Source: Endomicrobiia bacterium
Lineage (GTDB): Bacteria; Elusimicrobiota; Endomicrobiia; DTEH01
Direction of reading: 5' to 3'
Length of the DNA: 64,000 bases
Assembly: GCA_025059805.1 (NCBI GenBank)
Contig: JANXDG010000030.1
Span: forward strand, 10,646 to 74,645
The translations under genes were made by a program, and so were the position numbers. Each line of letters starts with the position of its first letter. Position 1 is the stretch's first letter. Below the pieces are notes generated by a model. That model made no database searches. It was given only the letters and a program-made list of their open reading frames with translations, and had not been told where the DNA came from. Below, piece after piece: positions 2,957-53,690 of this stretch.

Positions 2957-2987
2957 TTTAATACCTCCATAATAGTATACAAATAAT

Positions 2988-3395
2988 TTATTCTTTTTCT
3001 GTAGCTATTGCTAATTTTTGAGCACCTGATATCCTGGCTATGTCCATCACTGTCACTACAAAACCATGGCGAACATTTTTATCTGCACGAATTACAACTG
3101 TTCTATCAGAATAATAAGGCAATAAAAGTTTGAGCTGTTCTTCCAAGTTATCAAGTAAAACGGGTTTACCTTCTATAAAAATTTGTTCTTTAGCGTCAAT
3201 AGTTATCATAATTTTTTGCTGAACTTGTATTTCCGATGTTTGTGATTTAGGTAGGTTAACTTTTATCCCCGGTTCCACTATAAATGAAGATGAAAGAATA
3301 AAAAATAAAAGCACTTGGAATACCATATCAGTCATCGGTGCAAGATCTATTAATGTAATTGTGCTTCTATCTCTATATTTTCTGGTTAGTTTCAT
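2988..3395 (-). CDS. ExbD/TolR-family biopolymer transport protein
   Basis: 135 aa with a single N-terminal TM (LIDLAPMTDMVFQVLLFFIL) and a periplasmic domain typical of ExbD/TolR. Overlaps the upstream membrane-protein gene by 23 nt. Confidence 0.65.
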   Translation of the reverse strand: MKLTRKYRDRSTITLIDLAPMTDMVFQVLLFFILSSSFIVEPGIKVNLPKSQTSEIQVQQKIMITIDAKEQIFIEGKPVLLDNLEEQLKLLLPYYSDRTVVIRADKNVRHGFVVTVMDIARISGAQKLAIATEKE

Positions 3396-15776: not shown

Positions 15777-16520
15777 TTACTTTATCTGAACATCATACCT
15801 TCTTGTTCTTAATTTTGCCCATTCCCAACAATATTCGTACAAATGTAACCCTTTTGATGAAACTATAATTTCGCCATTACCTACTCCAATCTCTGACGCC
15901 ATATATTGCTTTAACAATTCCATACCTGCAAGGTTTGACGGCATCCCTCCCCATAAGTCCCATGAACGAAAATAGATTATAAAATGCAACTTGTTATATC
16001 TGATCCTTGTATCAATTATCCTGCAACATGGCGGATCTTTAAGTTTAATGTCCGTAGGCATACCAATCTCAAGTGTACATTGGTTAGTTTCATAACCCTC
16101 GGTTTTATAAATATTTATTACTTCTTGAATGGGATTTATCTTGCAAACAATCTCTTTTTCTTTACCATTCTCATCAAGAATTTTTATTTTTGGATTTACT
16201 AATCGTTCACCATATGTATAATCTTCAGTCGCGGTTTTCTCATCAGTTAGGAGATAATTTAAATACTGTTGAACATATTCCATAGAAGTTGGTGCTGGTA
16301 TCCCACAACCTTCAGGGATAATAGGTATTATCTGGTGTTCCGGTTTACGTACGCGTATCACAACATAATCAAATTCTAACCTACGTTGCCCTTTATAACT
16401 GCCTCTTTCAACTGTGTATACATATCCATACTGCAAAATTTTGTCTAAACATTGATACCAGGCATCGTCAAGGTCAAACGCGTCAATAAAAACAGGTGTC
16501 AAAAATTTTTCTTCTTTCAT
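15777..16520 (-). CDS. Thymidylate synthase family protein, short archaeal-type (ThyA-like / possible pyrimidine hydroxymethylase)
   Basis: 247 aa. The C-terminal half aligns by eye to the ThyA catalytic core: PCC (ThyA PCH nucleophile), FRSWD (QRSCD), GMPSNLAGMELL (GLPFNIASYALL), KGLHLYE (GDTHLYSNH). Too short for canonical bacterial ThyA (about 264-320 aa), so archaeal-type. Confidence 0.6.
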   Translation of the reverse strand: MKEEKFLTPVFIDAFDLDDAWYQCLDKILQYGYVYTVERGSYKGQRRLEFDYVVIRVRKPEHQIIPIIPEGCGIPAPTSMEYVQQYLNYLLTDEKTATEDYTYGERLVNPKIKILDENGKEKEIVCKINPIQEVINIYKTEGYETNQCTLEIGMPTDIKLKDPPCCRIIDTRIRYNKLHFIIYFRSWDLWGGMPSNLAGMELLKQYMASEIGVGNGEIIVSSKGLHLYEYCWEWAKLRTRRYDVQIK

Positions 16521-18875: not shown

Positions 18876-20836
18876 TTACAATATTTTTCTCTGACGAAGT
18901 TTAACTTACCACCAGCTATAATGATATCTTTTTCTTCCTGTGTGAGTTGTAATCTTGTTTTGATAACTTTGTTAGTCCTTTTATGTATTAAAAACACTGT
19001 ATTAAATTGTAATTGTGAATGCAAATTCTCAATTATTATTTCATCTAAATCTTGGATCTCATCATAATTTGTTTCATCAAAAAATTCTAACGGTACTACA
19101 CCAAAGTTGATAAGATTATTTTTATGTATTCTTGCAAAAGATTTTGCTACTACAACACAAATACCATTGTATCGTTGGACAATAGCAGCATGTTCTCTTG
19201 AAGAACCCTGGCCATAATTGTGTCCAGCAATTAACACAAACATTCTTTCTTTTTCAGGAATGTTTTCTATTTTCGTTACGATTTCAGGATACTTATTACA
19301 AAACATATACTTACTAATTGCAGGAATATTAGATCTCAACGATAAAATTTTTGTCCCTGCAGGCAGTATATCATCTGTAGAGATATTATCAGGTAATTTC
19401 TTTAGAACTTTCAATATCATATTATCTGCAAGTGGTGGTATTTCAGGCAAAGGTTTTATATTTGGACCACGAAAAATTTCAACTTGAGTGTTATTCTTTG
19501 GTGGATATATAAAAAGTGGTTTAAAATTAATCTTTTCCGGAATTAATATCTTAGGATATCTACCCAAGACTTTAGGATGAACAATTTCTCCGTATATTGC
19601 TGCGGCAGTTGCTACTTCTACAGATGAAAGATAAACCTTTGCATCTTTAGTACCTGAACGTCCTTCAAAATTACGGTTAAAAGTTCTTAGAGAGATCCCT
19701 GCGCTTATAGGTGCTTGTCCTTGACCTATACATGCACCACATACTGGCTCCATCACACGTACACCAGCATTGTACAAATTTTCTAATAAACCTAGTTTCT
19801 CCAGTATGTACATTACTTTTCTTGAACCGGGATAAACAATAACTGAGACTTTTGGGTTAACTTTACGCCCTTTTAACATCTTAGAAAAAAATATCATATC
19901 TTTTATTGAAGAATTTGTACAACTTCCTATACATACTTGATCAACCTTTAACCCTTCAATTTCATCTACAGAAACAACATTATCTGGTGAATGAGGTTGA
20001 GCAACCATTGGTGATATTTTCGCAAGGTCAAGTTCGTATTCTTCATCATAACTACATCCTTCATCAGGATAGAGGTATTTAAAATCTTTTAGTCTATTAT
20101 GAAATTTAAAGAATTTATATGTCTGACGGTCTGACGGAAAAATTGAACTTGTAAGCCCTAATTCGGTACCCATATTGGTTATAGTAGCGCGGTCGTATAC
20201 TGAAAGTATTCTTATTCCTTCGCCTGTATACTCAAAAATTTTGTTTACTCCACCTTTAACCGTAAATTGCTTTAAAAGATATAGTATTATATCTTTTGCA
20301 GAGACAAATTCTTGCAGTTTATTTTTCAACTTAATATTAACAACTTTCGGCATACGTAAAGAAAAAGGTTCACCTGCTAATGCACACGCAACTTCTAACC
20401 CACCAACACCTATCGCTAACATTCCAACAGCTGAAGATGTAGGAGTATGACTATCAGAACCTATAAGTGTTGAACCTGGTTTTGAAAAATTCTCAAGATG
20501 TAGTTGGTGACAAATACCATTACCTGCTGGTGAGAAAATTATACCATACTTTGCTGCTACAGTTTGCAAGTATTTATGATCATCTGAATTTTCAAAAGAA
20601 GTTTGTAATGTATTATGGTCAACATAGGAAACTGCTAAACTAACCCTAACTTTTTTGTTCTTTTTATTGCATACAATGCTTTCGTATTGAAGATATGCAA
20701 GTGTACCGGTAGCGTCCTGCGTTAAAGTTTGATCAATTTTTAACTTAATAGGTTCTAATGGTTCAGGTATCTTTTTGTTATTACCTAAAATATGTGATAA
20801 AATGATTTTTTGTGTTAGGTTAAGTCTTGGTTTCAT
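18872..20836 (-). CDS. Aconitase-family hydratase, fused large+small subunit type (Aquifex-type putative aconitate hydratase, about 650 aa)
   Basis: GSDSHTPTSSAVGMLAIGVGGLE, CIGSCTNS and CGACIG Fe-S ligand motifs, plus a C-terminal swivel domain. The length matches the short Aquifex-type aconitase class. Confidence 0.78.
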   Translation of the reverse strand: MKPRLNLTQKIILSHILGNNKKIPEPLEPIKLKIDQTLTQDATGTLAYLQYESIVCNKKNKKVRVSLAVSYVDHNTLQTSFENSDDHKYLQTVAAKYGIIFSPAGNGICHQLHLENFSKPGSTLIGSDSHTPTSSAVGMLAIGVGGLEVACALAGEPFSLRMPKVVNIKLKNKLQEFVSAKDIILYLLKQFTVKGGVNKIFEYTGEGIRILSVYDRATITNMGTELGLTSSIFPSDRQTYKFFKFHNRLKDFKYLYPDEGCSYDEEYELDLAKISPMVAQPHSPDNVVSVDEIEGLKVDQVCIGSCTNSSIKDMIFFSKMLKGRKVNPKVSVIVYPGSRKVMYILEKLGLLENLYNAGVRVMEPVCGACIGQGQAPISAGISLRTFNRNFEGRSGTKDAKVYLSSVEVATAAAIYGEIVHPKVLGRYPKILIPEKINFKPLFIYPPKNNTQVEIFRGPNIKPLPEIPPLADNMILKVLKKLPDNISTDDILPAGTKILSLRSNIPAISKYMFCNKYPEIVTKIENIPEKERMFVLIAGHNYGQGSSREHAAIVQRYNGICVVVAKSFARIHKNNLINFGVVPLEFFDETNYDEIQDLDEIIIENLHSQLQFNTVFLIHKRTNKVIKTRLQLTQEEKDIIIAGGKLNFVREKYCK

Positions 20837-20837
20837 T

Positions 20838-22097
20838 TTATTTCAAATTCATTACTTGAATAATTTTTTTAAAAATATCTGTATTATCATATACACCACT
20901 AAAAATTTCTGAATTTTTGCCCATAGCATAAATAGGTACTGACATACCAGAATGTACAGAAGTTGACCATCCAATTTCTGCACGTGACGATATGATCCTG
21001 CTAATCTCTTTACGATTACCTTTTGAAATTTGTAGTATTTCTTCTTCAGTAAGATCAGCAATACCAGTATATTCTTCAAATTTTTGTATAATTATTTCTT
21101 TTGGTTGACCTTTCAGTTCTTCGCCAATTTTTTTAATAGAAATTTTTTGTTTACTTATTTTCTCTGGATAAAATCTATACTCACCCGTACCTAAAGATAA
21201 ACCACCAGTTTCATGGTCAGAAGTTATAATAATTAATGTATCCTGTAAAAGCTTTTTTTGTTTTATAGTTTCAACTACCATTGCTACTGCGTCATCAAAT
21301 TCTTTAATCTCATTTATAGCCGTGGCTGCGTCATTATCATGACAAGCCCAGTCTATCCTGCCAGCTTCTATCAATAAGAAAAAACCTTTCTTGTTTTTAC
21401 TTAATACTTCAATTGCTGTTTTACTTAATTCGCTTAATGAAGGTATATCATCTCTTTGTAAGAAGTTTTTGTCAATATAATATACAGAATCTATATCGTT
21501 AAACAATCCAGTCAATTTAGTTACCAATTTCGTATCTAAACTCAAAAGTTCATCTCGTGTAGTTACTACAGTATATCCAGCATTTATAAATTCTTTTGTA
21601 TAAACAGAAAGGTATCTCCCACCTCCTAACAGAACATCTACATTTTTCAATTCTACATATTGTTTAGCAACTTGTTTTTCATCACGAGAATTAATATGTA
21701 CTGCGAACCCAGCTGGTGTTGCATGGGTTATTGTCACTGTTGTCACCAAACCGACTGTTCTACCAGTTTTTTTAATTTTTTCAACAAGGTTCTCAACTAC
21801 AACTCCATCTGTTGTTAAACCTAAAAACGAATTTTTTGTTTTTACACCACAGGACATAGCGGTTGCCGCAGCAGCAGAATCTGTAACTAAACTTTCGTCA
21901 GAATAAGTCTTAACAATCCCTACAACAGGAAATTTTTCAAAGTTTAGATACTGATCTTTACCTACGATAATTATTCGTGCAAGATCCGTGATTGCTAACC
22001 CCATACCGTCACCTATCATCAGAATTAAATTTTTTACTTCACAAAAAATAATACCGTAACCAAGAAGTAATAAAAAAACTATACTTTTGTTTTTCAT
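20838..22097 (-). CDS. Alkaline phosphatase (PhoA family), secreted
   Basis: Signal peptide, the MIGDGMG metal site and the active-site Ser motif TDSAAAATA. Confidence 0.8.
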   Translation of the reverse strand: MKNKSIVFLLLLGYGIIFCEVKNLILMIGDGMGLAITDLARIIIVGKDQYLNFEKFPVVGIVKTYSDESLVTDSAAAATAMSCGVKTKNSFLGLTTDGVVVENLVEKIKKTGRTVGLVTTVTITHATPAGFAVHINSRDEKQVAKQYVELKNVDVLLGGGRYLSVYTKEFINAGYTVVTTRDELLSLDTKLVTKLTGLFNDIDSVYYIDKNFLQRDDIPSLSELSKTAIEVLSKNKKGFFLLIEAGRIDWACHDNDAATAINEIKEFDDAVAMVVETIKQKKLLQDTLIIITSDHETGGLSLGTGEYRFYPEKISKQKISIKKIGEELKGQPKEIIIQKFEEYTGIADLTEEEILQISKGNRKEISRIISSRAEIGWSTSVHSGMSVPIYAMGKNSEIFSGVYDNTDIFKKIIQVMNLK

Positions 22098-22185
22098 GGA
22101 AGTAATACAAATTTTACTATTAAAAAAGTGTAAGATTATTTATTGTATTAAAATTTTATTTACTTTTTCAACATAAAGAAAAGAT

Positions 22186-23229
22186 TCAATATTCTCGTTC
22201 AGTGTGAACACTATAAGTTAGCCCGTCAGAAAATACTGTTATATTTCCGTTTTGGTCTGTTCTATAAATTTTAATTCCTCGTTGGTTTAGTTTTTCCAAT
22301 GTAACCTGATGTGGATGACCAAACGGATTACCTCTACCACATGAAATTATAGCTACCTCAGGAGAGACATGATCTAAAAAAGGTTCAGAAGTAGAAGTGA
22401 AAGAACCATGATGAGGAACCTTAAGGATTGTTGATTTCAATTTATCTCTATACTCTAATAAATCCATCTCTGCAAAAGTTTCTATATCAGCAGTGAAAAG
22501 GACAGAAAAATTTCTATAGGTTAGTTTTATAACTATAGACGAATTATTATCTGCACGGTCAACCGTTTCAGACCGATATCTCTGTATAGGTCCCAGAATT
22601 TCTATGTCAACTTCAGGATCTAACTGTATTTTTTGCTGTGACTTTGCTATTTTGTAGTTAATCTTCATCCTATATATTGTATTTAATAAACTTAAATATT
22701 CAGGATGGGACGTTTCAAGCTTTGCGTCCATAAACCACTTAGGGACAAAACCTGCTTCCAAAATACTTCTTGTACCACCAAAATGGTCCGTATGTGGATG
22801 TGTAATCACGATTCCATCTAAATTAATTTTGTATCTTTCTAAATATGGAACGATAACTTCTTGACCAGCATCAATTTCTGTTATAAGAGTACCTGGTTCT
22901 GATTCCTGAACAACCATACCTCTACCAGGACCAGTATCTATCAAAAAACTTTTCTCATTAGGTAATGTTATAAGAATCCCATCACCTTGTGTTACATCAA
23001 AAAAAACTATTTTTAATAACTTATCAGAAGTTAACTTAAAATAAGATGTTGTTATTTCATTTTTAATCTTGGTATGTATTCTTTGAAAGGTAAATAAACA
23101 TAAAATTAAACATAAACCTGACAATATGTATGCTATAAGTTTATCTCCAAAAATATAAGGTTCGCCACTGTGCAGTTTTTCTTCAAGTTGTTTTACATAT
23201 TGTCTATGCCAATAGTTTCTTTTGTTCAT
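22186..23229 (-). CDS. Membrane-anchored MBL-fold metallo-hydrolase, ComEC C-terminal-domain-like
   Basis: N-terminal TM helix followed by an MBL fold (ITHPHTDHFGG, VPHHGS, NPFGHP) that resembles the beta-lactamase domain of ComEC/Rec2. Confidence 0.7.
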   Translation of the reverse strand: MNKRNYWHRQYVKQLEEKLHSGEPYIFGDKLIAYILSGLCLILCLFTFQRIHTKIKNEITTSYFKLTSDKLLKIVFFDVTQGDGILITLPNEKSFLIDTGPGRGMVVQESEPGTLITEIDAGQEVIVPYLERYKINLDGIVITHPHTDHFGGTRSILEAGFVPKWFMDAKLETSHPEYLSLLNTIYRMKINYKIAKSQQKIQLDPEVDIEILGPIQRYRSETVDRADNNSSIVIKLTYRNFSVLFTADIETFAEMDLLEYRDKLKSTILKVPHHGSFTSTSEPFLDHVSPEVAIISCGRGNPFGHPHQVTLEKLNQRGIKIYRTDQNGNITVFSDGLTYSVHTEREY

Positions 23230-23232
23230 CTT

Positions 23233-25137
23233 TTATAACTTTTCAGCTTTCGGAGAAACTGGTTGTTCTGTTGTCGTTAACTCCTGTTGTATTTCTTTAT
23301 CAATTATCTCACCGGTTTCCGATACTTTAAATAACAATTTATCTTGATATTCTGTTTTTATCAATTGTTCTTTAGGGCAACCTTTAAGATAGTCACAACC
23401 ACCACAGTATTTGTTAATTTTTGATGGAAAAATTTCTTCAATTTTTTCTTCTGGAGGTTTTTCTCCTTTAGTCTCGTATTCTTTTTTAAGGCTAATATAT
23501 TTCTCTCCGTCCGCCCACATTTTGTCTCCTATATTTTTTACATAATCGTCTAAAAGATCAATATCCTTCTGTGACCGTGTTGTATAGATTATTTCGCCAA
23601 AACGAATAAAGATTAAACCTAAACGTTTAATATCAATCCCTTTGTTCCTCATTGCCCAGTAATAGATTGTAAGCTGCAAATCTTTATCAACTTCTTCCTG
23701 CGTACGAACTTTTGGATCCGTCTTATAGTCAAGTATTTCAAAGGTTCCATCAGGATTATTCTGTACCCTGTCTATATATCCAATCATTACATGGTTTCCT
23801 TTACCTATAGGTAATTCAAAGTATTCTTCAGTCATATACGCAGGTAGGTATTGTTCTTTAACAAATTTTTCATAATAACTAGTTAACCATTTCTTACCGT
23901 TCTGATAATATTCCTGTTCTTCTTGTTTTGAACTATACCCTGCAGAAATCCAACATTGGTCGTATAAACGAAACAACTCATCTATACTCGGCTCTTTTCT
24001 TTTCTTTGGTTTTATCTTGTAAAAAAGTTCTAAAGTATTATGTATGGTTGAACCTATGGAAAAGAACCCTTGTGGTTTTACACCTAACCTATCTATGTAG
24101 CAGAGTCTGTATCTACGTGGACATTGAATATACATTGACATTTTAGAATATGATAACGCCATTCTACCAGGTGTCTCCCGCGCAATACGAAACAAAGTTG
24201 TATCTGGAGATACGGGTTCTATTCCTTTTTGTTTATCACCTTCACGCTCAGTCTTCCAACCAGGACAAATATCATAATACCCACACCAGCCACATAACGG
24301 TCCCTTATGAAGTTCATATTCTTTATTTCTCAATTTCTCCTTTACCTCGGATATAATTTTCCTAGTTTCTTCCTGCATTGACCAGTCCTCAACAAAATCT
24401 GTTAGATTATCGTATAACAAAAAAAACTTAGAAAATTTAAATTTCTTTTTTTTCTTCTCAAAGTATGTTTTTAAAACAAAATATTGTAAGTTTGTATTAA
24501 CATCGTAAGGTAACATCTCAGAAATAATATTTCTTTTACTTGTAGCAAAGTCTATTACCCAATAGTCAAAATTATTATCTCTGTTAACTAAGATACAATC
24601 GCATTTCATTTTTAACCTTACACCATTATGTTTAACAACAATATCGGAATTTACTGTATATACATATTGTTTATGTTTTTCATACCAGCAATTAAAGTTA
24701 GTAAATATAGTTCGTATATTTTTTTCGTAATATAATCTATCTTCAGGAGTAAGTTCTGGAAAGTTCTCCAATACCTGTTGCATTATTATAAGTGAAATAT
24801 ATTCTAAATCTACCTTAATCTCTTTATTCAAAATTTTATAAATATATTGATGTATTAACTGCCCTATCAATCCTTCCGGATACTCTTTCGCAAGAACTTC
24901 ATCTAAATTGTAGTAATACTGAAATTTGTATTTAAGTCCACATGTGCGCATATCACTAATTTTCCCTACCGTAAGAACAATTTTCGGAACGAACAAAAAT
25001 TTCAAATATTCAAAAATTTTTCTCACACCACTGGCTAACATTATAAACAGATCAAATATCCCGCTAACAGCTTGTTCTCCTTTAAGGTTTTTCATGTTCA
25101 TTTTACATTTTAAAGAGTTTATTTTTTTACATTGCAA
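23233..25137 (-). CDS. Tandem Cas4/RecB-like PD-(D/E)XK nuclease with two C-x2-C-x5-C Fe-S cluster motifs
   Basis: Two repeats. Repeat 2 has the Cas4 N-terminal Y-x2-CPR motif (MYIQCPRRY), GYIDRV, ILDYKT (D-x-K) and CGGCDYLKGC. Repeat 1 has a degenerate TCGL in place of CPR, CDCILV, IDFATS (Lys missing) and CGWCGYYDIC. Confidence 0.65.
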   Translation of the reverse strand: MQCKKINSLKCKMNMKNLKGEQAVSGIFDLFIMLASGVRKIFEYLKFLFVPKIVLTVGKISDMRTCGLKYKFQYYYNLDEVLAKEYPEGLIGQLIHQYIYKILNKEIKVDLEYISLIIMQQVLENFPELTPEDRLYYEKNIRTIFTNFNCWYEKHKQYVYTVNSDIVVKHNGVRLKMKCDCILVNRDNNFDYWVIDFATSKRNIISEMLPYDVNTNLQYFVLKTYFEKKKKKFKFSKFFLLYDNLTDFVEDWSMQEETRKIISEVKEKLRNKEYELHKGPLCGWCGYYDICPGWKTEREGDKQKGIEPVSPDTTLFRIARETPGRMALSYSKMSMYIQCPRRYRLCYIDRLGVKPQGFFSIGSTIHNTLELFYKIKPKKRKEPSIDELFRLYDQCWISAGYSSKQEEQEYYQNGKKWLTSYYEKFVKEQYLPAYMTEEYFELPIGKGNHVMIGYIDRVQNNPDGTFEILDYKTDPKVRTQEEVDKDLQLTIYYWAMRNKGIDIKRLGLIFIRFGEIIYTTRSQKDIDLLDDYVKNIGDKMWADGEKYISLKKEYETKGEKPPEEKIEEIFPSKINKYCGGCDYLKGCPKEQLIKTEYQDKLLFKVSETGEIIDKEIQQELTTTEQPVSPKAEKL

Positions 25138-28100
25138 CGTTCTCTTGCTCTGTTGCTAATCGTGTTTCGTACTCTTCCTTACTTATACCTGTTGTATATT
25201 TAAATTCTTCACCGTTCAACTCTACAACTACAGCACCAACGTAATCAGTACGTAAAAATTTTATACCTAGTTCTTCGTAAATATTTGCTGTTTCCGTAAC
25301 ATACGAAGAGAAAAAATACCCTATTCTCTGATTGGTCCAACCATATTGGCATATTGCAATCTTGGGCGATACTTTATAGAGAAAATTTTTATTTACAGAT
25401 TTTGAAAAACCATTCTGTGGCACAAGCAAAATATCAGCAGTTAATTTGTCTGACATATCCATTACAAATTTTTCCTGCAACTCAAACCCAACCTGTGATG
25501 GTATCAAAATTGTAATTTGACCAAAAGTTATCCTAACAGCAAAAGAATTATTGCCTGGTTCATCCATCGTGTTATTTACGCCACCTGGGTTTATTATCGT
25601 TACCCTTAAAGGTTTGCCACTTACAATTTCTTCTAGTATAAGCTCTTCATTAGAAGAGACAATTTTTACATCACCTCTATAATTCTTCAAAAATCTTGAG
25701 AGTTTATAATTCTCGTTGTATAACCCTGTCACTTCGTAAAGATACGGATTTGACATATAGTACCATAGATTAAACTTCTCTAAGAAATCATAATATGTAA
25801 AAGAAGTACAGTCTTTATAGGTATGTGGCAAATATAATTTCTCTGTCCGAAAATGCGAAAGAAGATAAGGTAAACCGCCGATACACTGTGGTTTCAATGA
25901 TGTTATAACTACACTATCAAACTTTTTGATCTTATAATAAGTTAATGTTGGAGAAATTGCAGATTCTGCAGGTGACCAACCTGGAGGACCAGGTGGACCT
26001 GTATCTATTAAAACATTTTTTGTTGGCGTAGTTATAAGAACAGCATTACCAAAACCTACATCAAAAAAAATCAGTCTTACACTATATGTTTTCTTAATTT
26101 CTGGTAATAAAAAATAATATATTAAAGAAAAAAATATTATAACTGAGGTTACTACCACTTTCAGTCTATATTTTATGAACATTTCTTTAATTTTATCAAA
26201 CCATATAATTATGCCTAAAATCAAATACCATATAAGTAGCGATTTACTGCTAAACATTTCAACATAAGGATATGGCACAAAATTACCCCAGGTTTTTGCC
26301 ATACCCAAAAACATCTGACAAAGTTGATTATTGAACGCATTAATTATAAGTGCTATATTTACACCTATGTCGTTAATTATCTTAAAACCAAAAAGTGAAG
26401 AAAATAAGGTAAATACTAAATCAATAATACCTGCAATCCAGCCAAGTTGAACAATCCATCCTATTAGAGGTATAGCAAGAAAGTTTGCATAAAAACCAGA
26501 AATTGGAAATCTATAAAAATATACACTTGACAATGGCCACATCATACCTAACTGTATTGCTACCTGTGCACAAACAAATTGTATTAACGTACGCAATGTC
26601 GGGTTTGATCTCATATCTTTAACCAACAATTTACCAGAGAGAGAATATAAATAGTGTGCTATTACTCCACAGAAATAAAAAACTAATGAAAGTAAAAAAA
26701 ACTCACCTTTGTATAGCCATCTTGAAGTTGGTATGTTGAACCATTTTGGAAACAAAACATCTAATGATGGGAACCAGACTAAAAACGGGAACAGTTTCCT
26801 TACTAAAGAAACTTCTTGCAAAATTCCACCAAATAAAGAAAGCAATGTCATTCCAGTTACTACCGAAAATAATGGAAAAGTAATAAACTGGTGAATAAGT
26901 TTTGAATTTGTATAAATCAAAATTTTTTCAACCACAGGGCTAACATATATAAGAGACCATACTGCCATAAATGATAATACAAATGAAGCATCTGGTAATA
27001 AACTTGGATTCAATAATAGTATAACACAGGCTGCGATAATAATTGTCATCCTGGAACTCTTAACCAAAGATAATTTCAATACATCATACATAAATAAACC
27101 TGTACAGAACATCAATGCTGATCTTGTAGTTGCAGGCGACGCGCCTGTCATTATCACAAAAATTGTCAACGCTATGCTAACTAAAATAAATCTTAGAAAA
27201 GATTTGATTTTAAAAATTCTACATATCATTAAAAGTAATGCTGCGATAAAACCTGTATGTAAACCTGAAAGTGCAAGTACATGCGCTACACCTGTTGCTT
27301 GAAACTGCTCTCTAATTTTTTGAGGGACACCACCACGATAACCAAGTGTCACACCTCCTAAAAACGCACTCTGCGGGTACGGCACTGTTTTACGTATTGT
27401 TGTTAATATTTTTTTTCTCAAAATAAATGCTAGTTTCACTATAAAGTTAACTTTGCCCATACCAATATATTGTATTTCTGACGAATCACGTATAGTCTTT
27501 GTCACTGCATAGATACCACGAGCATTAAGATATTTTCTATAGTCAAACCCAGCAGGATTTGTAGCTTTTTTCGGTAATAGTAATGGTGATACTATTTTAA
27601 CATAGTCACCATAGCTCATCTGTAAATAATATTCACCAATTGTTGGTAACACCTTTGCTCTAATAAGACCACTACCGTTTTCAATTTTTACTTCTTCACC
27701 CTGATAACAACGAAGTTTTTTAATTATTTTTATATTGGGATCATCATAATACTGCCCAAGGCCAGATTCCAAAAGTAACTTATTAACATTTTCATTATTT
27801 ACAAATACCACTGCTAAAACTCTATCATAAATGTCAAACATATAATCTTCTTGAATAATCAGAGTAACATGTTTATTTAATATTTTACTTCTTAAAAATT
27901 CAGTTGCCTCATCTGCTTTTTCCTGCCCAATCTCTGGTGCATTAACAGCCATCAGTCGTACTTTATTGCCACTTTTCGTAACAAAGGTATCACCATCTGT
28001 TACTTTAACAACAAATTCATTCTCTACTATAACTCTAGCTGTTGACGTATCAATCTCTATAGTATATCCCTTTTTTGGAGATGGTATAATGCGATCGGGT

Positions 28101-28525
28101 TTTATAACAATATTTGTTGCATCCTCTCTTATATCTGGATCAGTAACTATTGTACCATAAATAACACTTGTCTGTGAGAAATCAGTATCAATAAATTTAT
28201 ATTTTCCATTTTCTTTAGTAAGTAAATGTGTTGAGGGATAAACTTTCATATCTTTGAGGTACCAAAATACACCAAAGGAAAAACTTGCAAAAACAAGAAA
28301 TAAACGTTTAAAAGTAAGCTTAGGCAGGACTTCTTTTTCAGGAATAATTATAGATATTATGATAAAAATAAAACAAACGATTAAAAATATATAGTGTGGT
28401 GGGCTTAAAAGTATTGAAATATTGGAAGTATATCCTATAATACCTATTCCAACCCCTGCTACAAAGAACCATAACACTATCACTGAATTTTCTAATATAT
28501 TAGCAATTTTATTTCGTAAATCCAT
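25127..28525 (-). CDS. comEC: ComEC/Rec2-family DNA internalisation channel protein with an embedded thermonuclease (SNase) domain and C-terminal MBL domain
   Basis: 1132 aa. It has a Competence-domain signature (VAHVLALSGLHTGF). An SNase-like segment (VTDGDTFVTKSGNKVRLMAVNAPEIG...DRVLA) sits in the N-terminal extracytoplasmic region. The C-terminal MBL-like domain begins VRLIFFDVGFGNAVLI. Confidence 0.75.
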   Translation of the reverse strand: MDLRNKIANILENSVIVLWFFVAGVGIGIIGYTSNISILLSPPHYIFLIVCFIFIIISIIIPEKEVLPKLTFKRLFLVFASFSFGVFWYLKDMKVYPSTHLLTKENGKYKFIDTDFSQTSVIYGTIVTDPDIREDATNIVIKPDRIIPSPKKGYTIEIDTSTARVIVENEFVVKVTDGDTFVTKSGNKVRLMAVNAPEIGQEKADEATEFLRSKILNKHVTLIIQEDYMFDIYDRVLAVVFVNNENVNKLLLESGLGQYYDDPNIKIIKKLRCYQGEEVKIENGSGLIRAKVLPTIGEYYLQMSYGDYVKIVSPLLLPKKATNPAGFDYRKYLNARGIYAVTKTIRDSSEIQYIGMGKVNFIVKLAFILRKKILTTIRKTVPYPQSAFLGGVTLGYRGGVPQKIREQFQATGVAHVLALSGLHTGFIAALLLMICRIFKIKSFLRFILVSIALTIFVIMTGASPATTRSALMFCTGLFMYDVLKLSLVKSSRMTIIIAACVILLLNPSLLPDASFVLSFMAVWSLIYVSPVVEKILIYTNSKLIHQFITFPLFSVVTGMTLLSLFGGILQEVSLVRKLFPFLVWFPSLDVLFPKWFNIPTSRWLYKGEFFLLSLVFYFCGVIAHYLYSLSGKLLVKDMRSNPTLRTLIQFVCAQVAIQLGMMWPLSSVYFYRFPISGFYANFLAIPLIGWIVQLGWIAGIIDLVFTLFSSLFGFKIINDIGVNIALIINAFNNQLCQMFLGMAKTWGNFVPYPYVEMFSSKSLLIWYLILGIIIWFDKIKEMFIKYRLKVVVTSVIIFFSLIYYFLLPEIKKTYSVRLIFFDVGFGNAVLITTPTKNVLIDTGPPGPPGWSPAESAISPTLTYYKIKKFDSVVITSLKPQCIGGLPYLLSHFRTEKLYLPHTYKDCTSFTYYDFLEKFNLWYYMSNPYLYEVTGLYNENYKLSRFLKNYRGDVKIVSSNEELILEEIVSGKPLRVTIINPGGVNNTMDEPGNNSFAVRITFGQITILIPSQVGFELQEKFVMDMSDKLTADILLVPQNGFSKSVNKNFLYKVSPKIAICQYGWTNQRIGYFFSSYVTETANIYEELGIKFLRTDYVGAVVVELNGEEFKYTTGISKEEYETRLATEQENVAM

Positions 28526-28706
28526 TTTTACTCAACAGTTTTTGTAAATCTTTTTTCACATTTTCGTCGTTTATTTGAGGATAGTAATTTTTGTTCGTCT
28601 GATAAATATTTTTAATTCTATACTCCGGCATTGTCAACAACACAACTCCTCCTATTGTCAAAGAAACTAAAAGCATAAATATAAATAATTTAGTTGTGGC
28701 ATCCAT
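28509..28706 (-). CDS. Small single-TM protein (hypothetical)
   Basis: 65-aa ORF with one hydrophobic helix. Overlaps the comEC start by 17 nt; no homology recognised. Confidence 0.3.
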   Translation of the reverse strand: MDATTKLFIFMLLVSLTIGGVVLLTMPEYRIKNIYQTNKNYYPQINDENVKKDLQKLLSKNGFTK

Positions 28707-28730
28707 AGTTTTTATGACACCTATTAATCC

Positions 28731-29570
28731 TTAATGATTTCTATTTAAAAATTTTCTAACCAAATCAAACATAAACTTTTCGTCAGCTTTCACACCTGTC
28801 CATAAGAAAAAAGATTCCACAGCTTGATATACAAACATTGGTACACCGTCAAAAACATGTTTGCAACCTATCTGTTTTGCATGTTTAACAAGCTCTGTCT
28901 CTCTGTTATACACTACATCATAGACAATGTGTTCTTTAGTTATGAGATCTAATCTTAAAGGTGAAAGGTCATTTTCTTTCATTCCAAGTGGTGTAGCATT
29001 CACTAACATTTTTACATCAGGTATAGTTGTATCAATTTGTTCTTCTTTGAGTAAAACAATAAAATCTTCAAATTGTTTTTTTATTAATAACATCTTGTTT
29101 TTGTCAATGTCATATACATATACTTTTTTTACACCTAACTCTTGTAATCCACAGACAATTGCTCTGCTAACACCGCCACACCCAATTACTAAAACATCCT
29201 CACCTTTCAAAGTAACCTCAGAAAGTGAATGTGTAAACCCATAAATGTCAGTATTGTAACCAATAAGTTCGCCACCTTTATTTACTACGGTATTAACAGC
29301 ACCAATGTGTTTCGCAAGTTTATCTACTTTGTGTAAATAAGAAATAACTTTCTCTTTATACGGTATGGTGATATTTAAACCTTCTATATTTAACGTTAAC
29401 ACAACTTCTTTAAAATATTTAAAGTTTTCAGGTAAAATTTCAAATGCTAAATATACAAAGTTAAGTCCGTATTTTTGTGCAAGTGATGTATGCAACATAG
29501 GAGAAAAAGAATGTTTAACAGGATATCCTATTATACCTAATAACCCTGTCTCAGAATTCACTAAGTTCAT
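28731..29570 (-). CDS. aroE: Shikimate dehydrogenase
   Basis: LLGIIGYPVKHSFSPMLH N-terminal substrate motif and GCGGVSRAI NADP motif; 279 aa. Confidence 0.85.
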   Translation of the reverse strand: MNLVNSETGLLGIIGYPVKHSFSPMLHTSLAQKYGLNFVYLAFEILPENFKYFKEVVLTLNIEGLNITIPYKEKVISYLHKVDKLAKHIGAVNTVVNKGGELIGYNTDIYGFTHSLSEVTLKGEDVLVIGCGGVSRAIVCGLQELGVKKVYVYDIDKNKMLLIKKQFEDFIVLLKEEQIDTTIPDVKMLVNATPLGMKENDLSPLRLDLITKEHIVYDVVYNRETELVKHAKQIGCKHVFDGVPMFVYQAVESFFLWTGVKADEKFMFDLVRKFLNRNH

Positions 29571-30037
29571 TCTTTTAAACCTCCAAAACGTATATCTATC
29601 ATTGAAAGATATCTCTCTACTTCCTTACGTTTTGATTCATCTATACTTAATACCTTATGAAAAAAAATTCTTGCCTGTCGGTACTTCCCAGCAGCAAAGT
29701 AAACCTTGCCTAGTAACATCAACACCTCTGAATTCTTCGGTTGTTTATTTAATATTTCAAAACACAATTTTTCTGCCGTTGTAAAATTCCTAGAATAATA
29801 ATTTTTATATGCGACATAGGTAAGATCACGGTTGACAGCTTTTCTAATCTCCACACCTATAGAAACTATTCCTGTTAGAATTAAAAACAATCCTATCTTT
29901 TTCCCATGCAAAATTATTATTCGTTCGTTGAACAAAAATTTTTTAATAGATTCGCATATTTTTATTAGAAGACTAATTTTATAAATATAAAGTAAACCAA
30001 CAACTATAAAAATTATTCCGATAAAAATTGATATCAT
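29567..30037 (-). CDS. Membrane-anchored TPR-repeat protein
   Basis: Two N-terminal TM helices then TPR-like repeats (LGKVYFAAGKYRQARIFFHKVLSID). Confidence 0.5.
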   Translation of the reverse strand: MISIFIGIIFIVVGLLYIYKISLLIKICESIKKFLFNERIIILHGKKIGLFLILTGIVSIGVEIRKAVNRDLTYVAYKNYYSRNFTTAEKLCFEILNKQPKNSEVLMLLGKVYFAAGKYRQARIFFHKVLSIDESKRKEVERYLSMIDIRFGGLKE

Positions 30038-30043
30038 TATTTC

Positions 30044-30250
30044 TTACTTATTATTTATTTCGATCTTTACCACATTTATTTTTTTATCTACGCCTTTCAA
30101 TGTTTTAACTAAAGCTATTATTACTTGTACAAACACTTTCTTCACATATGTGTTTAATGCAATTTTTTTGTAGTTAACTTCAAGAGTTATGTTCATTTTT
30201 CCTCCAAAAAGTGAAAATTCATGTATATATACATCAAAGAATCTTATCAC
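30044..30250 (-). CDS. Hypothetical small protein (68 aa)
   Basis: ORF only, with a 4-nt overlap with the upstream ZIP gene that suggests translational coupling. No recognisable motif. Confidence 0.25.
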   Translation of the reverse strand: MIRFFDVYIHEFSLFGGKMNITLEVNYKKIALNTYVKKVFVQVIIALVKTLKGVDKKINVVKIEINNK

Positions 30251-31574: not shown

Positions 31575-32147
31575 CTATACATACAAGGAAACAAAAAATA
31601 AACCAAAAACAGATAATAGAAACAAAACCATTATCATAAATGGTATAACAAGAATAAAAAACATTTGTATTATAGAAAAATCAAGCTCTGCCTTTGTGTA
31701 TTTTAAAACATTAAACAGAATTATAATTGATATCGTCAATTCTATATAGAAATAATATCTTGTCAAATTCAAATAGTAACAAATAAAACTGACTGGCAAC
31801 AACAGAATGTATAACGAAAAAAAGTTTAAAATTATACATAGCAAGTGTTTATAATCATAACTTTTCTTTTTCAATGAACGCACTAAGAATACCGAACCTA
31901 TATAAATTCCAATAATCAACATAAAAAATATTAAATAATACGGAAATAAAACTATAAAGAAAAAAATATCTTTCGCAAGAACAATATTCCGCGAAATTGT
32001 TAATGATAGTATTGATAGTAAGAAAATTAGAAAACTATTTCGTAATGAAAATTTTAACTGTAAGATTTCTCCTTTCGGAAAAATAAAATTTAACATATAG
32101 TTATCTATCAAATCTGAAACTGTCATAACAGTATAAACAAAACTCAA
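31575..32147 (-). CDS. Hypothetical polytopic membrane protein
   Basis: 190 aa with about five hydrophobic helices and no recognised motif. Confidence 0.45.
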   Translation of the reverse strand: MSFVYTVMTVSDLIDNYMLNFIFPKGEILQLKFSLRNSFLIFLLSILSLTISRNIVLAKDIFFFIVLFPYYLIFFMLIIGIYIGSVFLVRSLKKKSYDYKHLLCIILNFFSLYILLLPVSFICYYLNLTRYYFYIELTISIIILFNVLKYTKAELDFSIIQMFFILVIPFMIMVLFLLSVFGLFFVSLYV

Positions 32148-32595: not shown

Positions 32596-33516
32596 TCATT
32601 CAAGCATATATTCAAATGCAAATTTTTGTCGTATAAATTTTGTCATACCAGAAATTTTTTGTTGTCTTTCTTCCATTGCCTGCCGAAGTACATCTATAAA
32701 CGATGTTTTCTCACGTAAAATTTCAACTTCTTCTATCTTAGTAATCTTCTTGACCTCATCAATTGCAACATTTTCATCTCCTACACCATCAACCATCTTA
32801 AGTTCAAACGCTTTGTTTGCTATATATATTCCACCGTCAGCAAATTTTAAAATATCCTGTCTATCTAAATTTCTTCCTTTTTCAATAGCTGCAATGAATT
32901 GTTCATAAGCAGCATTAACTAAATCTTGAAACATCTTTTTTTCTTCTGGCAACATATCACGAAACGGTGAACCCATATCTTTGTATTTTGACGATTTTAT
33001 TATTTCTACATTAACACCGATTTTTTTTAATAATCCATTAATATTACCCACCTGTAAAAGTACTCCTATAGAACCTACAACACTGCCTTCCGCACAGATT
33101 ATTTTGTCACACGCTACTGCAACATAATACCCACCTGAAGCACATAATTCTGGCACATAACATACTATTGGTTTCTTATACTGTTGTTTCATTTTTATAA
33201 TTTGATTATACAACCGTTGTACTGCGGCAACTGATCCACCTGGCGAGTTAATCTTTAAAACTATACCTTTTACATCACTACGTTGAAATAATGAACTAAG
33301 TTTTTCTACATAATACTCAACATCTTTTTTTAGCATCGCACGTGGAACATCAGCATAAAAAATCTCTCCCCTTAAATCAATTATTGCAATTTTATCCTTT
33401 TTATGTTTAATTGGCATTTTCCCAATATCAATCCTTCTTTGGATTATAATGGCAAAACCCAGAATTACGCTAATAATGAACAATATCATAATTATAATGT
33501 TAACATTATTTTTCAT
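32596..33516 (-). CDS. sppA: Signal peptide peptidase SppA (36K type)
   Basis: N-terminal TM anchor followed by a ClpP/crotonase-fold S49 peptidase domain (VCYVPELCASGGYYVAVACDKIIC, GSIGV). Confidence 0.85.
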   Translation of the reverse strand: MKNNVNIIIMILFIISVILGFAIIIQRRIDIGKMPIKHKKDKIAIIDLRGEIFYADVPRAMLKKDVEYYVEKLSSLFQRSDVKGIVLKINSPGGSVAAVQRLYNQIIKMKQQYKKPIVCYVPELCASGGYYVAVACDKIICAEGSVVGSIGVLLQVGNINGLLKKIGVNVEIIKSSKYKDMGSPFRDMLPEEKKMFQDLVNAAYEQFIAAIEKGRNLDRQDILKFADGGIYIANKAFELKMVDGVGDENVAIDEVKKITKIEEVEILREKTSFIDVLRQAMEERQQKISGMTKFIRQKFAFEYMLE

Positions 33517-34034
33517 TTTTCTTTAACCTCAAACAGTTTTGAATATATTTCTTTACTTGGTAACCAAATATCATTAACATAATCTAAACCATACTTTTCT
33601 GCAAGTTTTGTCCAACTACGCAGTTTTTTATAATCTCTAACCAAATCTTTTAATAACGGATTTTTATCAGATTTGTGTTTAATAATAAAAAGTTTTATTA
33701 TTTCTGATTTACCAAATCCAGAAACTATTTTTTTAATATCTGCTAGTTTCAAAACACCGCTGGTTTCTAAGACAACATATTTATTTTCTTCTGTAGCACT
33801 TGATGATGGTACATTGTATTCGCTCATATTAATGTTATAAAATGCAGAACTATACTTTATTGAATAGAAATATTCTAAAATTTGTTTTAGTGTGGAGTCA
33901 TCTATGAGTTCAACTTGATAAGTTGTTGAAACAGAAATATCATATGGAGAAAAACCTATTCCAAATTCTACTGCCTGTGATAGTAAAAATTGGCAGTAAA
34001 ATATAAAGAACAAAAAAAATAATTTTTTATTCAT
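33513..34034 (-). CDS. Hypothetical secreted protein with possible C-terminal helix-hairpin-helix (ComEA-like?) segment
   Basis: Signal peptide present. The C-terminal LADIKKIVSGFGKSEIIKLFI weakly fits the HhH pattern LxxhxGhGxxxAxxIh. The HhH call is speculative. Confidence 0.4.
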   Translation of the reverse strand: MNKKLFFLFFIFYCQFLLSQAVEFGIGFSPYDISVSTTYQVELIDDSTLKQILEYFYSIKYSSAFYNINMSEYNVPSSSATEENKYVVLETSGVLKLADIKKIVSGFGKSEIIKLFIIKHKSDKNPLLKDLVRDYKKLRSWTKLAEKYGLDYVNDIWLPSKEIYSKLFEVKEK

Positions 34035-34557
34035 TCAGTAGATCCATAAAAGTTTTGATATCATTTTCAGCAGATTTTATAACTAAAGAAGCAAGATAAA
34101 TAATTAACGAGAATTGCCAGATGTCAGGTAAAGACAATATCAATCCCGTATCAATATCTTCTTTACGCTGAAATAACTCTTGATATTCTTTAATTACATC
34201 TTCCAAGGGTTTATCAACCACCTCTAATTTTATTTCAGAATTAGAATATCTCATTGATGGCAATTGCACACCACGTATTAACAAAAATGATTTTACAATT
34301 TCGTCACTATACTCGGTTGTTTCTTTAAATTTAAAATTATGTAATTCAAACTTACTATATGGCAGATGTATTATTGCAGGAGAAACTTCAACTGTCCCTT
34401 CTCTAATTACAGTACTACCTTTGTTAACTAAGGATTTGTTCACTAAAACATATGGAACAACAGTTTTTTTGAAAGTTTCAAGTTTGGAATACCGGCTCCT
34501 TATAATTTTCGTATTCTTAATTGCTTCTTCCCATTTTTTGTTAAGATCAATCTTCAT
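34027..34557 (-). CDS. Hypothetical protein
   Basis: 176-aa ORF, translationally coupled to both neighbours. No motif recognised. Confidence 0.4.
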   Translation of the reverse strand: MKIDLNKKWEEAIKNTKIIRSRYSKLETFKKTVVPYVLVNKSLVNKGSTVIREGTVEVSPAIIHLPYSKFELHNFKFKETTEYSDEIVKSFLLIRGVQLPSMRYSNSEIKLEVVDKPLEDVIKEYQELFQRKEDIDTGLILSLPDIWQFSLIIYLASLVIKSAENDIKTFMDLLNE

Positions 34558-41500: not shown

Positions 41501-41973
41501 TTTTCTATATCTTTTTCCGCTTTACCTTCTAACAAACAATAAGCAATTTCTCCTTCTAAACAACCAGATAGTGCAATTATATCCTTAGCATATACTTTTA
41601 GCCAATCTTTTTTAACTTTCCCCTTACCAGCAACTAAATTTTCTTCATACGCTTTTGAAAGAAGTTTCATTAAGTTTTTATATCCAACATCATTTTTTGC
41701 TAATAATGTTAAATGAAAACTTTTTCTTTGGTCAGGTATTTTCTCTTCTGGATCAATGTAAACCTCACATCCAATAATAGGTTTTATCCCAGCAGAGGTA
41801 CAACTGCGATAAAATTCTATTGCACCAAACATATTACCATGGTCCGTTATAGCTAAAGCTGGCATATTATATCTTTTTGTAATCTCAAAAAGGTCCGAAC
41901 CTTGATCTACTCTACACATACCATCTAAAAGTGAATACTCACTGTGCAGATGTAAATGTACAAACTCTTTCAT
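38527..41973 (-). CDS. dnaE: DNA polymerase III alpha subunit
   Basis: 1148 aa. N-terminal PHP domain begins HLHLHSEYSLLDG, followed by polymerase core and OB domains. Confidence 0.95.
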   Translation of the reverse strand: MKEFVHLHLHSEYSLLDGMCRVDQGSDLFEITKRYNMPALAITDHGNMFGAIEFYRSCTSAGIKPIIGCEVYIDPEEKIPDQRKSFHLTLLAKNDVGYKNLMKLLSKAYEENLVAGKGKVKKDWLKVYAKDIIALSGCLEGEIAYCLLEGKAEKDIEKTIEFYIDVFGKDNFYIELMDNNLEDQKKILPKLYEIAKRFGLKVVATNDIHYVRKQDAKLQEIILCIGTRTTLDSPDRLSFGSDEFYLKSPEEMYEVFKEYPDALKNTVEISQQCNLIIEFGKIHLPEFTLPEGETADNLLRKLCYEGLKERYEHIPLEITNRLEYELEIIKQKGFSPYFLIVRDFVNFAKENNIPVGPGRGSGVGSLVSYCLGITDVDPIKYGLLFERFLNPARKTLPDLDIDFADYGRDRIIEYVRKKYGEKNVVQIITFNTLKIKNTVRDVTRVLGLPASLADKISKLIPNADMTVEETITEIPEIKELYQKDENVRRILDYSKDIVGRTRHTGIHASGVIISKGDITDHTPLYRRTKEEPVTTQYYDEILLDLGLLKVDFLGLKTLSIIEETLDLIRRNYGINLDLKKIPLDDKKTFKLLQEGKTTGVFQLESPGMQDLLRKLKPTVFEDIIACIALYRPGPIRSGMVNDFVARKHNKQEIKYDHPLLVEVLKETYGVLVYQEQVMKIAQVIGGFTPEEADDLRSAVAKKVPEKIEKMEDRFISGAKKNGIPLNIAQKIFQQILNFGGYGFNKSHAAAYAVTSYRCAYLKAHYPLEYLISLVNAEVRSGANIKSQGKEEKNYRKFLLEIEEMGFKLLPPDINSSDVYFSKESDNFVRYGLLGIKNVGETAAEFIVNLRNKTGKFKSFEDFISRVNTREVNKRVIEALILSGSLDSLYKSNLSLEEKCIVRKMYINRVEEKEQRKQKVQLLFSEPEHKPKVVEKFTEQEIFYHEHQLTEIYWSGHPLQKHLDEIKSITHYSIGEVPSEDGKAVELIGMITEIKKYKTQSGQPWVKFMLEDLTDEIEILVYNKVYEECKDFIHKNGIVYVKGNISITDETKKSIIAEKVVLFENFKEELYKKKERIYITLSNVGVDDEFLSRIKKIIERYPGNTQVYFKVYTRNFEEIIIETDYKILPSNKMLSELRHIIGEKSFQFE

Positions 41974-53681: not shown

Positions 53682-53690
53682 AACTAAATC

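Follow-up and report, generated by a model that had tools for sequence, protein, structure and literature searches.

A Conserved ComEC-Family Gene Module with a Tandem Fe-S Nuclease and a Stand-Alone Metallo-β-Lactamase-Type Hydrolase in Elusimicrobiota and Other Bacterial Phyla

Analysis of a 64-kb stretch of DNA (positions 1–64000, referred to as the window) from a metagenome-assembled genome (MAG) of Endomicrobia (Elusimicrobiota) revealed a conserved, undescribed ComEC subsystem, which is encoded on the minus strand between positions 22186 and 28706. It comprises a small membrane protein, a long ComEC-family channel designated ComL, a tandem Fe-S nuclease of the PD-(D/E)XK superfamily designated NUC, and a stand-alone hydrolase with the metallo-β-lactamase (MBL) fold found in ComEC. 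Very probably, these genes encode machinery for DNA uptake that centres on a ComEC paralogue and in which the nuclease activity has passed to a separate, membrane-anchored protein. As the most plausible function, to which we assign a probability of roughly 0.5, we propose a ComEC-based importer degrading the incoming single-stranded DNA (ssDNA) for nucleotide or phosphate salvage. Somewhat more tentatively, the system may be a dedicated 'DNA-eating' variant of competence, or a two-channel machine in which ComL and the shorter ComEC paralogue ComS take one strand each, the imported DNA being consumed instead of recombined. In both variants the ComEC channel would be firmly coupled to a cytoplasmic Fe-S nuclease and, in some lineages, also to a UvrD motor, a DHH phosphoesterase and enzymes of deoxynucleoside catabolism. 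The module does not amount to a new principle of DNA uptake.

Results and Discussion

An initial annotation of the window had listed open reading frames (ORFs) of 65, 1132, 634 and 347 amino acids together with a second ComEC gene, all of which were recovered at the same positions on the minus strand. The 65-aa ORF (28509–28706) overlaps the start of ComL (1132 aa, 25127–28525) by 17 nt. The longest ORF for NUC comprises 634 aa (23233–25137) and begins with a TTG codon, and the gene of the 347-aa MBL protein (22186–23229) follows after a gap of 3 nt. A database copy of NUC annotated from an Endomicrobia MAG is 100 % identical, has 620 aa and starts at M15 (ATG at 25095), as do the orthologues, so that the NUC gene most likely spans 23233–25095 and is separated from the ComL stop codon by ~31 nt. 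The 3-nt NUC–MBL gap noted initially is confirmed, whereas the 11-nt overlap between ComL and NUC was an artefact of the longest-ORF TTG start. A promoter and terminator scan of positions 20500–30200 returned 62 promoter-like sites versus 51 expected in AT-rich DNA and no intergenic terminator, which is uninformative, leaving gene spacing as the only guide to the operon structure.

The assignment of ComL as a ComEC channel carrying an extra SNase (thermonuclease) domain holds in profile searches, with matches above cutoffs to Competence (PF03772, E 4e-31), DUF4131 (PF13567, E 7e-14) and SNase (PF00565, E 5.5e-11), and ComL obtains 190.4 bits on the ComEC/Rec2 equivalog model TIGR00361, barely more than its cutoff of 190.05. 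The protein starts with three transmembrane (TM) helices, followed by an oligonucleotide-binding (OB) fold, predicted to be periplasmic, with the nested SNase domain, an enlarged competence/TM domain and an MBL-like C-terminal domain. The predicted fold agrees with this layout, as the AlphaFold2 model calculated from 47 homologues (predicted local distance difference test score, pLDDT, 88.8; predicted template modelling score 0.82) consists of the three N-terminal TM helices, a β-rich OB/SNase region at residues ~120–356, a helical membrane domain at 361–810 and an α/β C-terminal domain at 816–1112. The Competence channel domain (aa ~361–810, 26096–27445), supported by the PF03772 match, invariant residues and the helical layout, keeps the hallmark 'GVAHVLALSGLH', and an alignment of ComL with canonical ComECs shows H415, S420, G421 and R468 to be invariant throughout. 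The PDB copy searched by Foldseek contains no full-length ComEC, and ComL matches obtained there are domain-level matches. By analogy to ComEC, ComL would act as an ssDNA channel across the inner membrane.

The ComL proteins form a distinct clade of 950–1260 aa, scoring 195–2537 bits compared to ≤139 bits for ordinary ComECs. ComL is an ancient separate subfamily rather than a recent elaboration of the other ComEC copy, which refines its earlier description as an elaborated extra copy. An assembly or sequencing fusion as the origin of the 1132-aa ORF could be excluded, as the SNase domain is nested within the OB fold, the SNase-in-ComEC architecture recurs in at least 15 independent assemblies and the AlphaFold2 model is confident.

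The C-terminal domain of ComL (aa ~816–1112, 25190–26080) gives only a sub-threshold Lactamase_B hit (20.1 versus 22.7 bits), and its best structural match in Foldseek is the crystal structure of a ComEC β-lactamase-like domain (9ic4; E 9e-15, TM-score 0.86). The motifs HxHxDH, GQGD and HHG(S) are missing and read SLKPQC, GFGN and PQNG instead (in the contexts 'ITSLKPQCIGG' and 'VPQNGF'). This loss is not a peculiarity of the window, since HxHxDH is absent from all 16 ComL copies of related loci and from 43 of 43 aligned ComL proteins, while the four canonical ComECs in the same alignment all keep it. Judged by these motifs, the MBL-like domain of ComL is catalytically dead.

The adjacent 347-aa protein, in contrast, presents intact MBL motifs (THPHTDHFGG, FTADIE, VPHHGS and GHPH), and the motif is intact in 18 of the 25 stand-alone MBL copies. 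It matches Lactamase_B with E 4e-15 and positions 441–663 of TIGR00361 with E 5e-47, in line with the initial description of a TM-anchored protein resembling the ComEC C-terminal domain. It has a single N-terminal TM segment, and every orthologue carries such a segment after a basic stretch or, in one case (L011), a cleavable signal peptide, for which reason a periplasmic orientation is predicted for the catalytic domain. In the solved ComEC, the periplasm likewise harbours the OB domain and the MBL domain, the latter of which degrades the non-translocated strand (PMC13539106). As the MBL domain of ComL appears dead, the stand-alone protein most likely supplies this ComEC-type activity in trans.

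The second ComEC gene of the window, ComS (748 aa, 36309–38555, minus strand), was identified by its TIGR00361 score, its MBL motif and its synteny with argB. The initial annotation regarded it as a canonical ComEC; it is indeed a ComEC paralogue, but with 177.8 bits it falls below the TIGR00361 cutoff of 190.05, and in its MBL motif HAHYPH the Asp is replaced by Pro. Considering the motifs of ComL and ComS, no ComEC-borne MBL domain in the window has the full metal-binding set. The ComS gene overlaps the 3' end of dnaE (38527–41973) by 29 nt.

NUC contains two stretches matching PDDEXK_1 (PF12705; E 2e-42, 146 bits versus a cutoff of 22). All eight cysteines, arranged in two C...CxxCx5C sets, are invariant in 24 homologues, and together with the fold match this substantiates the proposed pair of Cas4/RecB-like domains, each with its own Fe-S motif. 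The catalytic set of domain 2 (H352, D442, D456-Y-K458, Q474 and Y478) is complete and invariant in the same 24 homologues. Domain 1 is canonical in most lineages, but the Endomicrobiia read 'IDFATSK' without the motif-III Lys and in this lineage domain 1 is probably inactive. The number of nuclease domains in the module had been put at four; we count five nuclease-fold domains, including the degenerate MBL domain of ComL and the PD-(D/E)XK domain 1 lacking its motif-III Lys. No signal peptide was predicted in NUC and, as it is also an Fe-S protein, NUC is presumably cytoplasmic and would act on DNA there.

Among proteins of solved structure, the nuclease domain of AdnA is closest to NUC in sequence (E 3e-10), followed by ACE1 and Cas4. 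The AlphaFold2 model (pLDDT 86.9) retrieves ACE1, AdnA, AddB/AddA, Dna2, Cas4, RecE, Exo5 and MGME1 in Foldseek, and these structural relatives are all nucleases acting on ssDNA ends. An assignment as a true Cas4 was rejected, since NUC scores 39.4 bits on TIGR00372 (cutoff 65) and lacks a cas context; on PF01930 it obtains 26.1 bits with no single stretch passing alone. Neither cas1 or cas2 nor a CRISPR array was found in the window or the related loci. NUC has no UvrD-type helicase domain, and helicase-like genes occur separately and in some lineages only. Among 1.84 billion proteins, the two-domain form is rare and accounts for ~35 representatives (50 % identity), compared to thousands of single-domain relatives. 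In Riflebacteria/Ozemobacteraceae (loci L024, L026, L028, L029, L035, L038, L040, L043, L044 and L046; proteins P0274, P0276 and P0277), NUC relatives reach giant sizes of 800–1460 aa. They carry between three and five PD-(D/E)XK_1 domains in tandem, lack a helicase domain and do not adjoin ComEC.

The SNase domain of ComL (aa ~165–275, 27701–28033) scores 43.3 bits on PF00565 against a cutoff of 21. Alignment of the family with ComL proteins lacking the domain shows a clean insertion of ~115 residues into a loop of the OB fold, which Endomicrobiia share with a small number of other ComL lineages, the rest lacking it. Foldseek superimposes residues ~170–275 on staphylococcal nuclease with a root-mean-square deviation of 1.7–2.0 Å, a TM-score of ~0.7 and 25 % identity. 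The Ca2+-binding and catalytic residues of this family are Asp21, Arg35, Asp40, Glu43 and Arg87, of which ComL keeps the equivalents of Asp21 (in DGDT), Arg35, Glu43 and Arg87. The SNase and Cas4-like assignments, on which the initial annotation had hinged, passed both profile and fold tests. Directly downstream of the MBL gene, after 88 nt, the window encodes an alkaline phosphatase with a signal peptide (419 aa, 20838–22097, minus strand; PF00245, E 1e-89; N-terminus MKNKSIVFLLLLLGYGI). This gene follows the MBL gene in the window and in L008 and is absent in L001 and L010, so in two of four Endomicrobiia loci, and was therefore rejected as a core component. The SNase domain and the alkaline phosphatase are lineage-specific additions to the module.

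The 65-aa protein encoded upstream of ComL, which we regard as a small accessory membrane protein, has a single TM helix, after which the alignment shows a conserved 'PEYRIKN..N.NYYP.I' motif, and in at least 10 loci homologues of ~60 aa immediately precede ComL.

To survey conservation, contigs around seven NUC homologues were read, one genome per GTDB species was scanned, and ORFs were labelled by BLASTP with the window proteins. Besides Elusimicrobiota, a few further candidate phyla contributed NUC homologues. In 26 non-redundant loci plus L023, corresponding to ~27 species-level genomes, the genes of the small TM protein, ComL, NUC and the stand-alone MBL lie next to one another in the same orientation, and the triad is thus syntenic in related genomes. 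These loci belong to Endomicrobiia, many other Elusimicrobiota, Sumerlaeota, CSSED10-310, Schekmanbacteria and unclassified MAGs, and identities range from 66 % down to ~28 %. The gene order varies (NUC-MBL, MBL-NUC or NUC-ComL), while adjacency is maintained with short gaps or overlapping genes. Only three two-domain NUC loci with adequate flanks lack the module partners (L006, L007 and L039). All carriers are MAGs, with no cultured carrier among the species representatives scanned.

In most Elusimicrobiota the module is part of a larger cluster in the order small protein, ComL, NUC, MBL, a 184-aa HAMP-like membrane protein, an SLBB ComEA-like protein, ComS and argB, and this cluster including ComS is contiguous in L002, L004, L012 and L014–L021. 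Since ComS precedes argB in the window too, as is the case in other Elusimicrobiota, this cluster seems to have been split in Endomicrobiia. A tblastn search of the window for the 184-aa HAMP-like, SLBB ComEA-like, UvrD-like, DHH and cdd genes of the Elusimicrobiota clusters found none of them.

Several lineages show further neighbours. A clade consisting of L004 and L017–L022 adds a gene of ~570 aa with faint, degenerate UvrD-helicase similarity (E 4e-4), and L090 shows the order small protein, ComL, a 63-aa ORF, a single PD-(D/E)XK protein, a full UvrD helicase and MBL. In L005, L037 and the partial locus L031, which share 50–70 % amino acid identity, the order deoC, pdp, small protein, ComL, a helix-hairpin-helix (HhH) ComEA protein, MBL, NUC, DHH and cdd is found with gaps of at most 50 nt. 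ComL loci that are not linked to NUC (L088, L089, L091 and L092) instead show ComEA-like HhH proteins and outer-membrane β-barrel genes upstream. In L002, L003, L012, L041, L091 and L092, β-barrel genes (Toluene_X/FadL-type and UPF0164) and S8/C10 peptidases recur just ahead of the genes for the small protein and ComL, and may represent an outer-membrane part of the uptake apparatus. L091 and L092 furthermore encode very large HhH (ComEA-like) and LTD-domain proteins. At positions 6827–8017 of L088, a protein with a nuclease-related domain (NERD) and two small ORFs precede a distant ComL (1159 aa, 26 % identity), which has neither a tandem nuclease nor an MBL neighbour.

Based on these data, we propose that ComL and its small TM partner would form an inner-membrane ssDNA channel, the periplasmic MBL domain of ComL being a catalytically dead scaffold. 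The anchored, outward-facing stand-alone MBL would degrade one strand in trans, and in Endomicrobiia the SNase domain nested in the OB fold would provide a further endonuclease at the mouth of the channel. On the cytoplasmic side, NUC, which belongs to the ssDNA-end-threading class of AdnA, AddB, Cas4 and Dna2, would meet and degrade the incoming strand. The imported DNA would then mainly serve as a source of nucleotides, deoxyribose and phosphate instead of genetic information, and the periplasmic alkaline phosphatase of the window would free phosphate from the nuclease products. The domain identities and folds, the state of the motifs, the conserved linkage of the genes and the export signals are observed, whereas we infer the physical association of these parts, the location and substrate of NUC, and the nutritional purpose.

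Uptake as such is supported by the Competence hallmarks and ComEC-like architecture retained in ComL, and by the ComEA-like SLBB or HhH proteins and the second ComEC that module clusters often include. Known ComEC partners are reported to pull or protect the incoming strand (PMC12663950), so that a nuclease at the channel exit suggests consumption of the DNA. Consumption is also in line with the deoC/pdp/DHH/cdd operon of one lineage, with the UvrD partner found in a different one, and with the SNase domain and phosphatase of the window, and the single PD-(D/E)XK protein of L090 with its full UvrD helicase fits a pull-and-degrade motor. DNA scavenging or nucleotide salvage had already been suggested in the initial annotation, next to a role in defence; the operon of deoC, pdp, DHH and cdd genes and the adjacent phosphatase lend the former circumstantial support.

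A number of observations weigh against import for salvage. The nucleoside-catabolism neighbours occur in one lineage only, in which flanking synteny is generally conserved, and the phosphatase adjoins just half of the four Endomicrobiia loci. In most Elusimicrobiota the module clusters with ComEA-like genes and ComS, which would equally be expected of a transformation machine, and Elusimicrobia are reported to keep dprA, comF, comM and recA (PMC8809381). ComL is not always linked to NUC, as L088, L089 and L091 lack NUC and L092 has the MBL gene only. The position equivalent to Asp40 of the SNase domain is Asn in Endomicrobiia, while other SNase-bearing ComL proteins have Asp, and the SNase site is degenerate in P0069 (L010). 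The membrane side of the stand-alone MBL was deduced from homology and charge bias. In the clade of L004 and L017–L022 the stand-alone MBL is degenerate as well (TSPxENFCGG), which deprives the cluster of any intact MBL and rules out trans-complementation as a universal mechanism. Finally, the module is known from the genomes of uncultured MAGs alone.

As the main alternative, the same gene set might constitute a transformation machine with built-in end processing, in which ComL, ComS, the MBL and the ComEA-like protein import ssDNA and NUC trims its ends for loading of DprA and RecA, comparable to resection by AddAB or AdnAB or to trimming by Cas4. This is conceivable, since most Elusimicrobiota hold the module in one cluster with the SLBB ComEA-like gene and ComS, the NUC relatives AdnA, AddB and Cas4 are processing enzymes, and competence and recombination genes are reported to be conserved and expressed in Endomicrobium (PMC8809381). 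We nevertheless consider it unlikely, as no dprA, ssb, comF or recA gene adjoins the module in any of ~30 loci and the additions of the deoC/pdp/cdd/DHH operon, the phosphatase and the SNase domain would be left unexplained. We also know of no transformation system that needs a dedicated cytoplasmic nuclease at the channel. In a second scenario, ComL and ComS would each take one strand of the duplex, one being recombined and the other digested inside, so that none is lost to the medium. At least 10 genomes encode the two ComEC paralogues within a single cluster, and their MBL domains would be in keeping with such a division of labour: that of ComL is dead everywhere, clustered ComS proteins show no MBL similarity by BLASTP, and ComS of the window reads HAHYPH. 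Likewise, one clade has no intact MBL in its cluster, and the two nuclease domains of NUC recall the pairs of AddA with AddB or AdnA with AdnB. Most clusters, however, keep an intact periplasmic MBL able to degrade one strand, the ComL and ComS genes lie 8 kb apart in Endomicrobiia, and some ComL loci show no ComS nearby, which makes this scenario improbable.

A defence or surveillance module, whose nucleases destroy foreign DNA entering via ComEC as a barrier to phage and plasmid DNA, would be compatible with weak partial PADLOC hits to Cas4 (39 bits) and to MBL effectors (LmuA-type with 78 bits, Avs1a and RT-associated MBL), and stand-alone ComEC-type MBLs are reported to act as defence effectors elsewhere. 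We dropped defence as the leading explanation because PADLOC-DB returned weak single-domain hits only, without the full gene complement of any system, a sensor, a protease, cas1/2 and CRISPR all being absent as system-level partners. Abortive-infection effectors are cytoplasmic and thereby differ from the MBL, which is exported and anchored in the membrane, and the module is linked to a DNA channel and ComEA instead of defence islands. Furthermore, the neighbours are housekeeping genes, the base composition is uniform, and phage and plasmid collections contain partial single-domain matches but no full-length match; a defensive role is accordingly very unlikely. Chance adjacency of a general repair enzyme and an unrelated hydrolase is barely credible. 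Distant NUC relatives do occur away from ComEC in repair-like surroundings, such as polA-fpg-NUC-coaE in L007, and stand-alone ComEC-type MBLs are widespread (765 hits), but the linkage persists over several phyla at 28–35 % identity with adjacency kept despite changes in gene order. Import followed by degradation remains our preferred interpretation.

ComL follows the domain order of canonical ComEC/Rec2, exemplified by ComEC of Bacillus subtilis and the cryo-EM structure from Neomoorella carbonis (PMC13539106), with three TM helices, the OB fold (DUF4131), the Competence domain and the MBL fold. It is 200–380 aa longer and has enlarged OB and TM regions, its clade has lost the MBL catalytic motifs in favour of an active MBL on a separate anchored protein, and it features a conserved TM partner of ~60 aa, gene linkage to a cytoplasmic nuclease and, in some lineages, an SNase domain in the OB fold. 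NUC shares the PD-(D/E)XK fold and the four-Cys Fe-S staple with the nuclease domains of AdnAB and AddAB, with Cas4 and with ACE1, an Argonaute-associated enzyme of the Cas4 family. Its two nuclease modules per unit recall the AdnA–AdnB and AddA–AddB pairs, but the helicase motor of AdnAB and AddAB is missing from the protein and is represented in some lineages by a degenerate UvrD-like (L004 clade) or real UvrD (L090) neighbour. In contrast to the settings of Cas4 and ACE1, NUC loci are devoid of cas1, cas2, CRISPR and Argonaute.

EndA of Streptococcus pneumoniae and NucA of B. subtilis are competence entry nucleases, membrane or surface enzymes that cut incoming DNA at the uptake site, and NucM of Moraxella catarrhalis is likewise described as such. 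This uptake-site role is the one we propose for the SNase insert and the anchored MBL. EndA, NucA and NucM adopt the ββα-Me fold, however, whereas the module uses SNase and MBL folds, either fused into the channel protein or as a detached ComEC domain. The idea of DNA as food is not new either: Finkel and co-workers reportedly found that Escherichia coli uses DNA as a nutrient via com homologues and cytoplasmic ssDNA exonucleases. The concept is the same, but those exonucleases (ExoI, ExoVII, RecJ and others) are unlinked housekeeping enzymes in contrast to the dedicated nuclease of the channel operon described here. In Haloferax, the SNase lipoprotein Hvo_1477 is needed for the use and metabolism of extracellular DNA, and other haloarchaea fuse SNase to a ComEC-type MBL (COG2333) (PMC3929857). 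These proteins bring SNase and ComEC-type MBL together on the cell surface, as is predicted for the module, but they lack a Competence channel domain, and no cytoplasmic nuclease partner has been described for them. ComEC-mediated nucleotide recycling has also been proposed for bacteria of the candidate phyla radiation (PMC8080830). According to a survey of ComEC domain architectures, extra domains are limited to Lactamase_B_2, Lactamase_B_3, Abhydrolase_5, Abhydrolase_6 and SLBB, and most genomes encode a single Competence-domain protein (PMC6299819). Neither the present gene set nor a ComEC with an SNase domain was described in the full texts that we searched, in agreement with the novelty presumed at the outset.

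Whether competence serves genetic exchange or nutrition has been argued for decades, and the known uptake genes are silent on the fate of the DNA inside the cell. A ComEC protein that is operon-linked over several phyla to a nuclease of the ssDNA-end class, and to deoxynucleoside catabolism in one lineage, offers a concrete system that can be reconstituted for testing 'uptake for consumption'. If imported DNA is indeed consumed, it would be the first genetically encoded, operon-level evidence for ComEC uptake having evolved or been retained for nutrition. The module also indicates that the nuclease function of ComEC is detachable, with the fused domain apparently dead and the anchored copy probably active, which bears on the coupling of strand degradation and translocation in the solved ComEC structures. 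In addition, it serves as a warning that not every Competence-domain protein should be annotated as a transformation gene.

Genomic Surroundings of the Module

The base composition of the window is uniform at ~31 % G+C. All gene-like ORFs of at least 100 aa are on the minus strand and the GC skew is negative throughout, so that the window forms one co-oriented block. The genes flanking the module are housekeeping genes, among others aroE, a ZIP transporter gene, dtd, argB, dnaE, acn, tmk, holB, aspS and phoH. In accordance with the initial annotation, Rfam, tandem repeat and profile searches of the window detected no cas gene or CRISPR array, and no competence gene was found besides those of the ComL/ComS block described above; one tRNA was detected.

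Five ORFs of 173–508 aa gave no Pfam match at the thresholds used (31575–32147, 33513–34557, 46168–46740 and 58463–59989). A 247-aa protein (15777–16520), flanked by a PSP1 gene and aspS in the vicinity of tmk and holB, shows a partial, weak match to thymidylate synthase (E 3e-10), and this protein is missing from the corresponding position of L001. In the latter locus, which originates from a related Endomicrobia MAG, a UDP-glucose/GDP-mannose dehydrogenase gene (1140–3923) carries an intein, as judged by an Intein_splicing match and a faint LAGLIDADG hit. A sugar-use locus at 47992–61502 of the window encodes two GH94 phosphorylases, a GH35/42 enzyme and a glucoamylase-like protein, and includes a 782-aa protein (53691–56039) in which an extracellular solute-binding domain (SBP_bac_1) is fused with an ABC permease domain (BPD_transp_1).

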